64,000 nt of DNA from an uncultured Gammaproteobacteria bacterium. Lineage in GTDB: Bacteria; Patescibacteriota; Microgenomatia; UBA10105; UBA927. Location of the stretch: assembly GCA_964609895.1 (NCBI GenBank), contig CAZSTG010000002.1:3362-67361 (forward strand). Direction: 5' to 3'. Each line of letters opens with the position of its first letter. Within the stretch, counting starts at the first letter, position 1. This document shows positions 8,031-48,966 of this stretch, piece after piece. The position numbers and the translations under genes are program-made. The notes beneath the pieces were generated by a model. That model ran no database searches. It worked only from the letters and a program-made list of their open reading frames with translations, and had not been told where the DNA came from.

Positions 8031-8085
8031 GGAGAGGGTCTGACCCTCGCGCGAAGCTAATTTTTCGAGGGTCAGACCCTCTCCA
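8031..8085. repeat. REP doublet (BIME-like): GGAGAGGGTCTGACCCTC - spacer gcgcgaagctaattttt - GAGGGTCAGACCCTCTCC
   Basis: Two inverted copies of the 15-nt palindrome GAGGGTC(A/T)GACCCTC are present. The same element recurs about 10 times in the window. Confidence 0.85.
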
Positions 8086-9218: not shown

Positions 9219-9273
9219 GGGAGAGGGTCAGACCCTCTCTTTTTTGAAGCTACGCGAGGGTCAGACCCTCTCC
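9219..9273. repeat. REP doublet (spacer tcttttttgaagctacgcga)
   Basis: Same palindrome pair as at 8031 but with the type-B spacer. Confidence 0.85.
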
Positions 9274-9319
9274 AAGGGTTCTTTCATCATCTGTGCGTAT
9301 ACGGTATACTAAGATTCTT

Positions 9320-12398: not shown

Positions 12399-12471
12399 TC
12401 GGGATGGAGAGACTCGAACTCTCGACCTCTTCGTTCCGAACGAAGCACGCTACCAACTGCGCTACATCCCG
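12399..12471 (-). tRNA. tRNA-Pro (anticodon CGG)
   Basis: The reverse complement folds as a cloverleaf: acceptor CGGGATG/CATCCCG, anticodon stem CTTCG/CGAAG, loop TTCGGAA and T-loop TTCGAGT. Confidence 0.8.
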
Positions 12472-21180: not shown

Positions 21181-21234
21181 GGAGAGGGTCTGACCCTCTC
21201 TTTTTTGAAGCTACGCGAGGGTCTGACCCTCTCC
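21181..21234. repeat. REP doublet (type-B spacer)
   Basis: ggagagggtctgaccctctcttttttgaagctacgcgagggtctgaccctctcc. Confidence 0.85.
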
Positions 21235-22882: not shown

Positions 22883-24808
22883 ATGCTGCTTCCTGCCATT
22901 AAAAAACTTTCCAATCGGTTGCGTTTTGATGTTCTCTCGATGACGACTACCGCGGGTAGCGGTCATCCGACTTCATCACTTTCCGCTGTTGAGCTGATGG
23001 CGATGCTGTATTTCAAGTATTTGAGGCTTGATACAGATAATCCGAAAAACCTTTCCAATGACCGTGTTATTTTTTCAAAAGGCCACGCATCGCCGCTTCT
23101 GTATGCACTCTTTCATGTTGCGGGAATTATTTCGGACAAAGAACTTGGCGACTATCGTCAGTTTGGAAGTGTACTAGAAGGACATCCAACGCCACGATTT
23201 CCATTTGCAGATATCGCAACGGGCTCTTTGGGTCAGGGACTTGCGATAGGACTGGGCGAAGCGCTTGCAGGAGCACCGCGCGTGTTTGTGTTGTTAGGTG
23301 ACGGGGAACTGTCAGAAGGCGCCATTTGGGAAGCAGTGATGGCTGCGGGATATCATAAAACACAGAACCTCATTGCACTTGCTGATATTAATGCACTCGA
23401 ACAATCAGGTGGTACGATGGACGCATGGGATACGGAAGCGTATCGCAAACGATTTGAAGCATTTGGATGGGCAGCAATTGTGGTTGATGGCCATGATCTA
23501 AAAATGCTTGATACAGCGTACCAAAAGGCAATTGATTATCGTGGTGGACCAACTATTATTCTTGCCAAAACAAACAAAGGACACGGCATATCGTTTTTAC
23601 AAAATAAACATGGGTGGCATGGGAAAGTGCTTTCCAAGGAACTGCTTGTGAAAGCGCTTGCAGAACTGGGTGATGTCGACACATCATTTGAAGGGATTAT
23701 CAAAAAACCTGAGAGCACCAAAGAACACGCGATGACAAGACGCGATGATGCATTTGTACGGAAGAACACAGTATATGAAAAACCGACAACAACGCGTGAG
23801 GGGTTTGGAAAAGCGCTCGTGCGACTTGGTACGCGGGACACCCACATGATGGTGTTGGATGGAGATTTGGAGAAGTCTACGTACACACAGTTGTTTCATG
23901 AAGCATTTCCGAAACAGTTTTTCGAGTGTCATATTGCAGAACAACTTATGGTTGGTATTGCTGCAGGTATGGCTATTTGTGGGAAGTATCCTGTCATTTC
24001 TTCCTATGGGAGTTTTCTCACACGTGCCTTTGATCAACTCAGAATGGCAGCACTCTCTGGCATGTCCCTGATGGTCAATGGATCGCATGGAGGCGTGTCC
24101 GTTGGTCCAGATGGCGCGTCACAAATGGGACTTGAGGATATTGCGTTGTTTCGAACACTGCCAAACTCTATCGTTTTAAGTCCTGCAGATGCGGTATCAG
24201 CCGAAAAACTGACCGAATGTATTTATGGGTATGACGGCATTGCCTATATCAGAACAACCCGTCCGAATCTGCCGATACTATATGACGGGAAAACGGAATT
24301 TGCAATCGGCGGCAGTCACGTGTTTACAGAAACAAACATGCACCGTGCTGGAAATAAAACTGGCAGTTCCACCAAGCCCGTCACTTCGCTTCCCACAAAA
24401 TCAAAGCTTAGCTTTGAAAAGATTGTGACGATTATCGCAACGGGTGTGACCGTACATGAAGCACTGAAAGCACAAAAAGAATTAGAAGCCAGCGGCACGC
24501 CAACACGCGTCATTGATTGTTATAGCATCAAACCGATTGATGCGCAAGCAATTCGAAATGCGGCGGCTGTATCCAAACAACTGATTATTGTGGAGGATCA
24601 TTATCCTGAAGGCGGGTTAGGCGAGGCAGTATTTACCGCACTTTCAGGCACAAATTCGGAGAGGGTCAGACCCTCGCAGGGTCAGACCCTCCAGATGAAT
24701 AGTACGCATTTAGCCGTGTATAAACAGCCGATGTCGGGAACTGCGGAAGAACTGCTCCGATATGAAGAGATTGATGCAACGGCAATAATTAGGAATGCGA
24801 TAGTATAA
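22883..24808 (+). CDS. tkt: Transketolase (full length, TPP-, Pyr- and C-terminal domains)
   Basis: SGHPTSSLS...FSKGHASPLLYA...GSLGQGL...VLLGDGELSEGAIWEA is the TPP-binding N-domain. HIAEQLMVGIAAGMA is the Pyr domain and GGLGEAV the C-domain. A REP element lies in frame near the 3' end. Confidence 0.9.
   Translation: MLLPAIKKLSNRLRFDVLSMTTTAGSGHPTSSLSAVELMAMLYFKYLRLDTDNPKNLSNDRVIFSKGHASPLLYALFHVAGIISDKELGDYRQFGSVLEGHPTPRFPFADIATGSLGQGLAIGLGEALAGAPRVFVLLGDGELSEGAIWEAVMAAGYHKTQNLIALADINALEQSGGTMDAWDTEAYRKRFEAFGWAAIVVDGHDLKMLDTAYQKAIDYRGGPTIILAKTNKGHGISFLQNKHGWHGKVLSKELLVKALAELGDVDTSFEGIIKKPESTKEHAMTRRDDAFVRKNTVYEKPTTTREGFGKALVRLGTRDTHMMVLDGDLEKSTYTQLFHEAFPKQFFECHIAEQLMVGIAAGMAICGKYPVISSYGSFLTRAFDQLRMAALSGMSLMVNGSHGGVSVGPDGASQMGLEDIALFRTLPNSIVLSPADAVSAEKLTECIYGYDGIAYIRTTRPNLPILYDGKTEFAIGGSHVFTETNMHRAGNKTGSSTKPVTSLPTKSKLSFEKIVTIIATGVTVHEALKAQKELEASGTPTRVIDCYSIKPIDAQAIRNAAAVSKQLIIVEDHYPEGGLGEAVFTALSGTNSERVRPSQGQTLQMNSTHLAVYKQPMSGTAEELLRYEEIDATAIIRNAIV
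24658..24692. repeat. Truncated REP pair inserted in frame within transketolase C-terminal domain
   Basis: ggagagggtcagaccctcgcagggtcagaccctcc is translated as SERVRPSQGQTLQ in the tkt frame. Confidence 0.8.
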
Positions 24809-29501: not shown

Positions 29502-29650
29502 ATACATCCTTTCCAAAAAAATATCCCTCAGGTGAGGGATAGAATAGCAGTGTTACTATACTGCCTGTATTCAATCCCTCGGTAGGAATTATGGACATTG
29601 CTGTCCGCCTACTGTCTCAAGGACAATGCTTATTTATACCATGGTGCGCC

Positions 29651-40934: not shown

Positions 40935-40985
40935 CGAGGGTCTGACCCTCTCTTTTTTGAAGCTACGCGAGGGTCTGACCCTCGC
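40935..40985. repeat. REP doublet (type-B spacer), preceded by degenerate gaagctagatcaaagctagc
   Basis: cgagggtctgaccctctcttttttgaagctacgcgagggtctgaccctcgc. Confidence 0.85.
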
Positions 40986-45362: not shown

Positions 45363-45366
45363 CAAT

Positions 45367-45419
45367 GGAGAGGGTCAGACCCTCTCCTGAAGCTAATTTT
45401 TCAAGGGTCAGACCCTCGC
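45367..45419. repeat. REP doublet (type-A spacer) filling kbl/hydrolase intergenic gap
   Basis: ggagagggtcagaccctctcctgaagctaatttttcaagggtcagaccctcgc. Confidence 0.85.
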
Positions 45420-45424
45420 AGGCT

Positions 45425-46426
45425 ATGAAACGATGGATGATTGTGTCTCTTATTCTGTGCGGCGTGATCGCCAGCGGCTTGGTGGGATGGTTTCTCTTTT
45501 CCAAAGAACGGCCCGTCCTTGTCAGTCCACTCAGTGGTATTCGGGAAAAGCCGCTTGAAAAATATTCCATACCGCGGTTGCGTATGAGACAATTTGTGCC
45601 GTCCACAATTGTGTTGGGTGAGCCGATAGCGACAGCGAGCGCATATACCGTGCACCCGTTTTCGTTTGTCAGTGATGGAAAAAAAGTGACGGGAATTGCC
45701 CATATACCAACGTCAACAAATCCTGAAAGAAAATTTCCTGTGATTGTACAATTGCGCGGGTATGTAGGTCGGGAAATATATACGGCGGGGATGGGAACAA
45801 CGCATAGCGCGGAAGTATATGCATCAAACGGGTATATTTCTCTGGCGCCTGATTTTTTAGGATATGGTGAATCTGATATGCCATCAACAAGCCCTATTGA
45901 AGAACGATTGGAAACGTATACGACCGCGTTAACACTTCTTGCATCTGTTCCGACCTTGCCATATGCCGATTTGACCCATATTGGATTGTGGGGACACAGT
46001 AACGGCGGACAGATAGCACTCACACTGCTTACGATTCTTGGTGATCGTGCAGTGCCAACGGTGGTATGGGCACCGGTGACGAAACCGTTTCCATATAATA
46101 TTTTGTACTATACAGATGAATTTGATGATCGGGGAAAGGCACTCAGGAAAGTGGTTGCGGATTTTGAGGCGGAGTATGACGCGGATGTGTATTCCATGAC
46201 ACAATATCTTGACGGGATTGCCGTCCCCATACAGCTTTCTCAGGGGACACGCGATGATGCGGTTCCTGTCGCGTGGAGCGATACGTTTGTAAAAACACTG
46301 GAAGAGAAGGAAAAAGACATTACGTATTTCACATACTCCGGCGCGGATCACAATTTAGCGGGGGGTGATGCATGGAATACGGCGATGACGCGCGATATGC
46401 AATTTTTCAAGAATGCATGGAAGTAG
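45425..46426 (+). CDS. Membrane-anchored alpha/beta-hydrolase (S9/dienelactone-hydrolase-like)
   Basis: An N-terminal TM and the IGLWGHSNGGQIAL nucleophile elbow (GxSxG) are present. Start trimmed to MKRWM downstream of the REP. Confidence 0.7.
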   Translation: MKRWMIVSLILCGVIASGLVGWFLFSKERPVLVSPLSGIREKPLEKYSIPRLRMRQFVPSTIVLGEPIATASAYTVHPFSFVSDGKKVTGIAHIPTSTNPERKFPVIVQLRGYVGREIYTAGMGTTHSAEVYASNGYISLAPDFLGYGESDMPSTSPIEERLETYTTALTLLASVPTLPYADLTHIGLWGHSNGGQIALTLLTILGDRAVPTVVWAPVTKPFPYNILYYTDEFDDRGKALRKVVADFEAEYDADVYSMTQYLDGIAVPIQLSQGTRDDAVPVAWSDTFVKTLEEKEKDITYFTYSGADHNLAGGDAWNTAMTRDMQFFKNAWK

Positions 46427-46435
46427 CCGTAAGGA

Positions 46436-46486
46436 AAGGGTCTGACCCTCTCCTTTTTGAAGCTACGCGAGGGTCAGACCCTCTCC
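46436..46486. repeat. REP doublet (type-B spacer)
   Basis: aagggtctgaccctctcctttttgaagctacgcgagggtcagaccctctcc. Confidence 0.85.
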
Positions 46487-47958: not shown

Positions 47959-47979
47959 GGAGAGGGTCAGACCCTCTCC
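47959..47979. repeat. Single REP palindrome GGAGAGGGTCAGACCCTCTCC between arsR stop and RAYT stop
   Basis: A 21-nt near-perfect palindrome. Confidence 0.85.
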
Positions 47980-48645
47980 TTATTCTTCATTGTCGAGAAG
48001 ATACGCGTCCATCGTCCATTCGACTTTTTTCTGTGCTTCGTCGGTGTCTTCGACAAATGATTTGTAAGACGTAAATGTTTGTTGTGATGGGATATTGGAA
48101 CTAAATGATGAAAGAATAATATGCGGATTGACCCATGAAATATTTTTGAGTCCTAGATATTGTGCATAAGATGAATGTGCTGTTACTAAATCAACACCGA
48201 GTTTTATGGGATTTCTATGAATGTATCGTGATATATGGAGGAAATATGCATCATCATCAATCAAAATTGCTTTGTAAACGCTTTCAAATAGTGCGCCGAT
48301 ACGTCGGTATTTTTTATTGAAATACATGGAATATCTTGTGCACACAGATTTGAGAAATGTATGCAGGGAATGTTCATCTTGCTGTTGTATCAGGAAATGA
48401 AAGTGATTGGGCATGAGGCAATAGGCCAGCATGGTGATGGTATCGGAAAAATTTTGGACAGGATCTTTTATGTGTGGACCAATCATTGCCGTCGGGATTT
48501 CTTTTTTCAGCGCCTCTTTAAGTATGTTGAGAAACCGCAGGTAATCTGATTCCTCGAGGAAAATATTCCGTTTCTCCACACCGCGATTGTAGACGTGGTA
48601 TATCCCGTCTAATACAAAAAGTCTTTTTGTATTTTTTCTGGGCAT
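47980..48645 (-). CDS. REP-associated tyrosine transposase (RAYT; IS200/IS605-like Y1 HUH transposase)
   Basis: The N-terminal GIYHVYNRGVEKRNIF, the HUH motif (MPNHFHFLIQ) and the C-terminal catalytic-Tyr motif SRYIHRNPIKLGV (YxxxNP) are present. The gene is flanked on both sides by the inverted REP palindromes. Confidence 0.8.
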   Translation of the reverse strand: MPRKNTKRLFVLDGIYHVYNRGVEKRNIFLEESDYLRFLNILKEALKKEIPTAMIGPHIKDPVQNFSDTITMLAYCLMPNHFHFLIQQQDEHSLHTFLKSVCTRYSMYFNKKYRRIGALFESVYKAILIDDDAYFLHISRYIHRNPIKLGVDLVTAHSSYAQYLGLKNISWVNPHIILSSFSSNIPSQQTFTSYKSFVEDTDEAQKKVEWTMDAYLLDNEE

Positions 48646-48672
48646 TATGTTCACTATATCACAGAATAGATT

Positions 48673-48726
48673 GGAGAGGGTCAGACCCTCTCTTGAAGCT
48701 AATTTTGCGAGGGTCAGACCCTCTCT
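48673..48726. repeat. REP doublet (type-A spacer) upstream of RAYT
   Basis: ggagagggtcagaccctctcttgaagctaattttgcgagggtcagaccctctct. Confidence 0.85.
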
Positions 48727-48875
48727 GGGGAGAATTGCTACTTGACGAAGTTTTATATTTTCTTTCATACTATATAGGTTCGTATGTATTCTGCCCGAAG
48801 ACAGTGCTATGAACTTTAATTATTTCAATAGTGCATATACGGCAACCACAGTTGCCGGATATTCTTTTCTTTTTT

Positions 48876-48913: not shown

Positions 48914-48966
48914 GGAGAGGGTCAGACCCTCGCCTAGCTTCAAAAAAGAGAGGGTCAGACCCTCGC
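48914..48966. repeat. REP doublet, inverted orientation (spacer gcctagcttcaaaaaagaga)
   Basis: ggagagggtcagaccctcgcctagcttcaaaaaagagagggtcagaccctcgc. Confidence 0.85.

Follow-up and report, generated by a model that had tools for sequence, protein, structure and literature searches.

A REP doublet read in frame within a transketolase loop of a CPR bacterium, and its possible renewal from a resident REP/RAYT system

Repetitive extragenic palindromic (REP) elements are extragenic by definition, and the persistence of REPINs, REP doublets that fold into one long hairpin, over millions of years is still debated. The small genomes of the candidate phyla radiation (CPR) are thought to be poor in repetitive DNA. 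The longer RPE-1 elements, which belong to the Rickettsia palindromic elements (RPEs) reportedly described by Ogata and colleagues in 2000, are the classic case of palindromic DNA in protein genes, and the TnpA enzymes of the IS200/IS605 insertion sequences (IS) recognise subterminal hairpins on single-stranded DNA. Here we describe a REP doublet that is read in frame inside the transketolase gene (tkt) of an uncultured CPR bacterium. The stretch analysed, called the window below, comprises 64,000 nucleotides (contig CAZSTG010000002.1, positions 3,362 to 67,361; GC ∼44%), and it also holds a dispersed family of the same palindrome and a gene resembling those of REP-associated tyrosine transposases (RAYTs). 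The closest named relatives of its Tkt and RAYT proteins come from Microgenomates or Gottesmanbacteria metagenome-assembled genomes (MAGs), which assigns the window to a CPR (Patescibacteria) genome.

REPIN-RAYT systems, with persistence at orthologous sites, are established (PMC3116915, PMC5581495), and the structure of an E. coli RAYT-REP complex has been solved (4ER8; PMC3479197). As in the systems of Pseudomonas and Enterobacteria, the palindromes in the window are short, dispersed and mostly intergenic, and each of their doublets can form a single long hairpin; the commonest 16-mer stands on either side of a Y1/HUH gene, the homologues of this gene come with their own co-varying palindrome, and copies persist at orthologous positions across species. 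Unlike in those systems, the host belongs to the CPR, the palindrome is near-perfect and lacks a GTAG or CGTC foot, the RAYT falls in a divergent clade of ∼225-aa proteins below the equivalog cut-off, and one copy is intragenic and translated. REPs within genes, many of them dimers, have been reported from several species, with Rickettsia RPE-4 and RPE-6 among them (Di Nocera et al., 2013; PMC3733652). The tkt copy resembles such intragenic REPs and RPEs in that an in-frame palindrome leaves the open reading frame (ORF) whole, dimers are common, positions are presumably permissive and the site is common to related species; it differs in its host gene, since genes for DNA replication and repair dominate the list there. 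RPEs are also larger (100–150 bp) and have no linked RAYT. The fold of the window's Y1 protein is shared with the TnpA enzymes of IS200/IS605 (IS608, ISDra2; Foldseek ranks 2–29), but here there are no distinct left- and right-end hairpins and no tnpB, and the hairpins are scattered at about one locus per 6 kb. Because these hairpins are dispersed on their own, we regard this as REP rather than IS behaviour. A limited literature search found no report on REP/RAYT in CPR or Patescibacteria, and reports may exist. What is new here is the CPR lineage, tkt as the host gene, and a quantified account of a translated REP that holds to its consensus amid changes of unit number and frame; synonymous-site conservation and unit or frame change of a translated REP were not found in the accessible part of Di Nocera et al. 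(2013; PMC3733652).

The tkt copy occupies positions 24658–24692 (35 bases), with the sequence GGAGAGGGTCAGACCCTC-GCA-GGGTCAGACCCTCC, inside the tkt ORF. The host gene and the parts of the copy are as follows.

22883–24808, plus strand: transketolase gene tkt, host of the insertion; 641 aa, a fused human-type Tkt, and the sole long ORF at the site.
24658–24675, plus strand: REP unit 1, GGAGAGGGTCAGACCCTC; read as (S)ERVRPS and common to seven related genomes.
24676–24678, plus strand: 3-nt junction GCA between the units, which forms the loop of the long hairpin.
24679–24692, plus strand: REP unit 2, GGGTCAGACCCTCC; read as (Q)GQTL(Q), with +12 nt specific to this genome.

The pair is translated without a stop as S592-ERVRPSQGQTL-Q604, so the in-frame, stop-free insertion that an earlier sequence-only reading of this stretch had proposed is present at these positions and is read within the 641-aa ORF. 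Two 14-nt copies lie 16 bp apart and are mutually complementary; as single-stranded DNA, the pair folds into one 13-bp hairpin (−13 kcal/mol, z −4.2). In its A-centred orientation, GGAGAGGGTCAGACCCTCTCC, the palindrome can be read without a stop in each of the three frames (GEGQTLS, ERVRPS and RGSDPL); the T-centred orientation has a TGA in one of them (GTC TGA CCC). Every tkt unit that is read in the TGA-prone frame, as RVRP, is A-centred, and the T-centred units in the tkt of a more distant genome, L088, are read in an open frame. Across genomes, the same palindrome is read in three frames, as GSDP, RVRP and GQT.

The Pfam domains Transketolase_N, Transket_pyr and Transketolase_C are all present in the ORF, each above its cut-off, and the protein matches human TKT structures with an E value of 5e-141. 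It is full length and collinear with 24 orthologues. Judged by its domains and the structure match, the tkt ORF is a complete transketolase; the full-length frame, collinear orthologues and aligned catalytic-domain motifs argue that it is not a pseudogene, in line with the sequence-only reading. The C-terminal domain of transketolase is not known to contribute to the active site. In an AlphaFold model of the entire protein (mean predicted local distance difference test, pLDDT, 85.5), three segments drop below 50, and one of them, residues 591–603, coincides exactly with the REP-encoded residues, between a helix (579–588) and a strand (606–610). In the alignment to human TKT, the same segment appears as extra residues between ...AVVGE and ...THLAV. 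The model and the variation of loop length across the family thus place the REP-encoded segment in a predicted disordered, length-variable surface loop of the C-terminal domain, as had been supposed.

The palindrome has the core GGGTCWGACCC. With up to two mismatches, GGGTCAGACCCTC matched the two strands of the window 38 times against 0.67 expected, a count reached by 0 of 100 shuffles. These matches group into 10 loci (eight doublets, one solo unit and the tkt copy), nine of which are intergenic. A doublet is built from GGAGAGGGTCWGACCCTC, an 18-nt spacer and GAGGGTCWGACCCTCTCC, with a 33-bp period; in the eight doublets, the outer arms GGAGA.../...TCTCC have inverted symmetry, and the spacers form two sub-types, each with a T- or A-run besides GAAGCTA or its complement. 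The extragenic doublet at 9219–9274 folds as one hairpin (−17.5 kcal/mol, z −5.3). The loci outside tkt are listed here.

47959–47979: solo REP GGAGAGGGTCAGACCCTCTCC, abutting the RAYT stop codon.
48673–48726: REP doublet with a 33-bp period, ∼27 nt upstream of the RAYT start codon.
48914–48964: REP doublet, intergenic, upstream of RAYT.
8031–8084: REP doublet, intergenic.
9220–9273: REP doublet, intergenic.
21181–21234: REP doublet in the gap between a 23S-rRNA-IVP-like gene and rpiB; syntenic in L081, L082 and L086.
40936–40983: REP doublet, intergenic.
45367–45417: REP doublet, with an aminotransferase gene on one side and a hydrolase gene on the other.
46433–46486: REP doublet, intergenic, between convergent genes.

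Rfam gave no match above its gathering threshold at any REP copy in the window. In the flanks of 19 units, GGAGA or GCGA extends the stem, and neither GTAG nor CGTC is conserved at the hairpin foot; GTAG occurs only within the type-A spacer, at a distance of 12 nt from the following unit, and type-B spacers are without it. Because no such tetranucleotide stands at the foot, we kept the element out of the GTAG and CGTC REP superfamilies. A role as an intrinsic terminator was considered and rejected: type-A doublets resemble a hairpin plus T-run, but their orientation to the flanking genes is inconsistent, and the tkt copy has no T-run. The rpiB-side REP is intact in L081 (8280), L082 (5193) and L086 (1425), is reduced to one unit in L085 (3205) and L001 (8303), and is absent in L084 and L087.

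The transposase gene lies 23 kb from the tkt REP, in the same window, where it is present in one copy.

47980–48645, minus strand: RAYT-like Y1/HUH transposase gene; 221 aa from the ATG at 48645 (MPRKNTKRLF...); the called ORF reaches 48768.

The start is likely the ATG at 48645, because the 41 codons upstream of it cross a REP doublet. The protein scored 36.6 bits against Pfam Y1_Tnp (PF01797; cut-off 23), and its best NCBIfam match was REP_Tyr_transpos (NF047646, REP-associated tyrosine transposase; E 2e-12, 47 bits, under the 80-bit equivalog cut-off). A sequence-only search of the PDB gave no or marginal matches (ISDra2 TnpA, E 0.045). With an AlphaFold2 model (mean pLDDT 82.7), the top fold match in the PDB was 4ER8, the E. 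coli RAYT-REP complex (E 5e-7, target-normalised template modelling score 0.68), ahead of the IS608 and ISDra2 transposases. Homologues of ∼225 aa number in the thousands, and those with a named source are from Gottesmanbacteria or Curtissbacteria; in 23 of them, neither H81-F-H83 (the HUH motif) nor Y141 (in RYIHRNP) varies.

Counted over these 64 kb, the commonest 16-mer, GAGAGGGTCAGACCCT (11 copies), is found in both the 5′ and the 3′ flank of the RAYT gene. Flanking by the most abundant 16-mer is the criterion by which Bertels et al. separated RAYTs from other genes (PMC5581495). We also observed that tight doublets of the window's REP core stand on both sides of a 75%-identical homologue (L091), and that a Y1_Tnp ORF in L185 has a doublet and a triplet of the core as flanks. 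The flanks of a 50%-identical homologue (L092) hold another palindrome, TGTCAGGGTG[A/T]CACCCTGACA, so that palindrome and protein co-vary. From a dispersed family and a RAYT-like gene in the same window flanked by it, we conclude that the palindrome is a REP, which upholds the sequence-only reading on this point.

Several gene calls run into these repeats. The first ATG of the neighbouring ORFs lies in or upstream of the REPs at 45367 and 48673, and the start calls there are probably wrong because the Pfam domains begin far downstream. The calls concerned, 47980–48768 (minus strand) and 45365–46426 (plus strand), extend 5′ into REP doublets, and the probable true starts are 48645 for the former and an ATG past 45417 for the latter. 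A public protein of 262 aa (P0121) includes the REP-encoded stretch PREGLTLAKLASREGLTLS.

To compare the insertion site between orthologues, we counted loop length between GGLGEAV and HLAV. The loop has 25 residues in the window against 21 in each of the seven closest orthologues; in more distant ones it has 13, the family mode. The insert thus amounts to 12 residues relative to the uninserted state, close to the roughly 11 first estimated; only four of them, QGQT, belong to this genome alone. The seven closest orthologues come from related Gottesmanbacteria genomes (Tkt 79–84% identical), and all carry one or two units at exactly the same site. Five of them (L001, L081, L083, L084 and L086) have a single unit, GAG AGG GTC AGA CCC TCT (ERVRPS), with the codons of unit 1 in the window; AGG GTC AGA CCC is the same throughout the relatives except for one substitution in L001. 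L085 and L087 have two units, 16 bp apart, with the extra unit upstream and in another frame (GCA GGG TCA GAC CCT GAC AGG GTC AGA CCC, read as GSDPDRVRP). In the window, the extra unit lies downstream and in a third frame (QGQT, +12 nt), and its stretch is a gap in all seven relatives. Tight doublets with 16-bp spacing occur in the tkt of L085 and L087 and flank the RAYT of L091, which makes them a natural form of the family; the description of the window's pair as truncated does not hold.

Farther out, L088 and L089 (Tkt 61% identical) have a full doublet with 33-bp spacing, read as GSDPARASVFEGSDPS. L002 (Tkt 68% identical) has no insertion in an alignment at the DNA level, and the loop is 13 residues long in L002 and in P0012–P0017. 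A sister clade (P0008–P0011; L090 and L093) has a 22-residue loop with no hairpin and unrelated nucleotides. The loop of L093 contains GGT AGT GAC CCT, which may be a decayed REP unit, and the sister-clade loop as a whole may be a decayed REP or of independent origin; no REP with the window's core was seen in ∼32 kb of sister-clade loci. As an observation apart, L090 (11714–11760) and L093 (8826–8870) have an xSDP peptide in this loop, with Ser encoded by AGY and not by TCA. A loop of similar length with unrelated nucleotides had been named in advance as a sign of coincidental resemblance. Such a loop does exist in the sister clade, but it does not rescue the coincidence reading, because the closest orthologues have the REP sequence itself. 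An uninserted allele did not come up in this clade: all seven closest orthologues carry a unit, and a search with the C-terminal 129 aa for uninserted or variant alleles returned only two more members of the clade, both inserted.

In a neighbour-joining tree of Tkt built without the loop, the eight REP-bearing genomes form a clade (100% bootstrap), with the long-loop clade as its sister (82%). L085 and L087 are not sisters, though both have the upstream doublet, so this state is homoplastic. L088 falls outside the REP clade, where nodes have only 30–50% bootstrap. Together, these patterns indicate that the insertion is ancient and shared, not a strain polymorphism.

We then compared the hairpin with the rest of the gene at the nucleotide level. 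Between pairs of the eight tkt genes, 52–75% of the codons for identical residues are the same, and of the 225 residue-invariant positions with 4- or 6-fold degeneracy, only 19 (8.4%) keep a single codon throughout the eight genomes. Within the hairpin, every one of the eight has AGG, GTC and CCC, for which the chance is ∼6e-4 if these three codons are independent. AGA is kept in the seven genomes with Arg at that position (L001 has ATA, Ile), and all seven relatives keep TCT, where the window, at its remodelled junction, has TCG. When 1706 sliding segments were ranked by nucleotide conservation, the 17-nt REP stretch came in the top 4; it has 19 pairwise differences, and the median is 92. The loop in the sister clade evolves fast even as protein, and for this reason protein function does not explain the conservation of the hairpin.

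The flank sub-type of the tkt copy equals that of extragenic REPs in the same genome, GAGA-type in the window, L081 and L086 and CA-type in L085. An extragenic unit of L085 and its tkt unit both have cctgacaGGGTCAGACCCt, and the CA-type is seen beside the RAYT of L091 as well. In the window, the junction reads CCCTCGCAGG, which is present again at the extragenic unit 45405, and the CCCTCGCAG flank at that junction recurs at the same extragenic REP and in L086. Five genomes also share, base for base, the 33 nt of native tkt (24623–24655) that adjoin the REP on its 5′ side. The tkt region that includes these 33 nt has the highest third-position identity of the gene (0.82 versus a mean of 0.59; 1.0 in the five genomes), and the two bases at the 5′ foot of the REP are hypervariable (TC, AT, CT, TT, CT). 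This flank identity points to short recombination tracts between lineages that begin at the REP, or to selection on the nucleic acid. RNAalifold found 0 compensatory pairs around the tkt REP, where there is too little variation.

We consider it nearly certain that the tkt copy is an in-frame REP that is tolerated and belongs to a REP/RAYT system. Our overall explanation, which we regard as probable, is that a REP doublet (a REPIN-like hairpin) of this genome's own system sits in loop codons of tkt and is renewed there under a frame filter; whether renewal has been continual is, on its own, about evenly balanced. A REP would have landed in the Tkt loop in the ancestor of the clade and would have been tolerated there on account of the loop's exposure and of a palindrome free of encoded stops. 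Since then, the tkt copy may have been a live member of the genome's REP population, repeatedly re-templated or rearranged by RAYT or by recombination between REP copies or lineages. Such renewal would hold it at the family consensus and would shift its sub-type and its unit number (one, or two with the extra unit on either side), and selection on Tkt would let through only in-frame, stop-free outcomes. The second unit in the window (+12 nt, QGQT) would be the latest such event. We infer templated renewal from the codon invariance, the matching flank sub-types, and a unit number, frame and sub-type that are homoplastic and incongruent with the gene tree.

Several points weigh against this explanation. 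Conversion from extragenic REPs cannot homogenise a 33-nt flank that is specific to tkt. Only 8–22 kb were available from each relative, so that the sub-types assigned per genome rest on very few copies. The RAYT scores below the NCBIfam cut-off, the element lacks a GTAG or CGTC tetranucleotide at the foot, and any action of RAYT on the tkt copy is putative; the activity of Tkt and the exposure of its loop are likewise predictions. A bolder version, which we think rather doubtful, is that the tkt REP is still an active RAYT substrate, where nicking at the foot would start short one-sided tracts of repair or gene conversion templated by other REP copies or by DNA from related lineages. Such tracts would explain the consensus state, the hypervariable dinucleotide at the 5′ foot, the 33-nt flank and the homoplastic unit number.

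The invariance of the synonymous sites in the hairpin could also mean that it has been co-opted at tkt, in mRNA (for stability, processing or the pausing of ribosomes between structural elements) or in DNA (as a site for a host factor or RAYT), and is under purifying selection as nucleic acid. REPs elsewhere are known as RNA elements (PMC3733652), and the hairpin region with the 33 nt upstream holds the gene's highest third-position identity. However, the sister clade retained the loop and lost the hairpin, the unit number, frame and flanks differ between genomes, and, with 0 compensatory pairs, no covariation backs a structure beyond the palindrome itself; with no T-run after the hairpin there is no intrinsic terminator, and Rfam has no match. 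We therefore regard co-option as unlikely. A role gained by the ERVRPS(L) peptide, with protein selection and codon preference behind the conservation, is less plausible by far. At the protein level, five of the seven relatives have an unchanged ERVRPSLQMN (D replaces E in L085 and L087, and I replaces R in L001), but selection on protein leaves synonymous sites free, and codon invariance elsewhere in the gene is at the baseline given above. Moreover, the segment is predicted to be disordered, the sister-clade loop evolves fast, and the palindrome is read in three frames.

Independent recent insertions into one hot-spot, lineage by lineage, instead of one old maintained insertion, would account for the full doublet of L088 in the same loop outside the clade, for the homoplastic state of L085 and L087, and for unrelated palindromes in the loop of another CPR lineage (L214). 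We find this improbable, as five genomes agree in the codons, the frame, the downstream CTT CAG ATG and the whole upstream flank, the clade yielded no uninserted allele, and the placement of L088 is weak at its bootstrap values. An assembly artefact or a decaying pseudogene can practically be dismissed. The source is a MAG, and repeats can give mis-joins, but the same insertion site occurs in eight independent assemblies (NCBI, JGI, ENA and Logan), the ORF is full length with aligned catalytic-domain motifs, and tkt is collinear on both flanks.

Other sites in Tkt show comparable features. A Tkt fragment from another CPR lineage (L214; 550–630 and 850–905) has palindromes of unrelated families in the same two loops: the hairpins ATCCCCGCGAAGGCGGGGAT and ATCCTCGGGTCAAGCCCGAGGAT in the linker between the Pyr and C-terminal domains, and GATTCCGGGAATC and ATTCCCGGGATC in the C-terminal loop. 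In several CPR lineages, both Tkt loops thus look like places where palindromic repeats land recurrently. In the window, the Pyr/C-domain linker has a second low-confidence insertion (∼24341–24412, residues 487–510) that exceeds its counterpart in the closest relatives by 16 aa and the baseline by ∼25 aa, with the local palindrome CAAAGCTTAGCTTTG. A REP origin for it is not supported, as its spacer-like motif is more than three mismatches from the REP spacer and it has no 14-mer match to other DNA of the window. The linker insert of L081 bears a weak resemblance, GAAGCTAC. Five Gottesmanbacteria-type Tkt proteins (P0066, P0068, P0073, P0100 and P0244) have an expanded C-terminal loop or linker with internally repeated peptides (for example DSGN..DSGN, NFKF..NFKF and VIPGLTGDP..SRFRGNDMG), which suggests further translated repeats.

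A metagenome scan with the 15-mer GAGGGTCWGACCCTC returned, among the matches listed, mostly single ones on high-GC contigs (median GC 0.65), and it is uninformative on the distribution of the family. Three low-GC contigs with the window's REP core are described for their own sake. In L191 (5111–5147), the frame of a radical-SAM ORF includes a doublet (GGSDPPRFGEGLTLP) a little past the ORF's CxxxCxxC motif; in L135 (2154–2164), an OPT transporter ORF takes in a unit close to its C-terminus; and in L185 (2490–3242), the doublet and triplet of the Y1_Tnp ORF have a 17-bp period. Within the window, Rfam also placed a ribosomal protein L10 leader at 29509–29639 (minus strand; 45.5 bits versus a gathering score of 44) and six tRNA genes at 12399, 12525, 40228, 42645, 47107 and 47210, two of which are 0.7–0.9 kb from the RAYT/REP cluster.

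Selfish DNA in an intact gene of core metabolism is unusual and not unprecedented. For annotation, the window shows ORF callers extending genes into REPs, so that peptides such as ERVRPS, GSDP, GQTL and EGLTL enter predicted proteins. The analysis documents a REP/RAYT-type system in CPR bacteria, and its translated copy brings an internal control, as the synonymous sites in the rest of the gene gauge neutral divergence against which the hairpin can be compared. In this clade, the hairpin is as conserved as the cofactor-binding motifs, despite encoding a predicted disordered loop and despite changes in its copy number and frame. This is direct comparative evidence that something besides protein function maintains REP sequences. 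If the tkt REP is indeed an active RAYT substrate, a translated REP would serve as a natural reporter in which the reading frame separates protein selection from maintenance at the DNA level, and RAYT activity would be able to remodel the loops of an essential protein.

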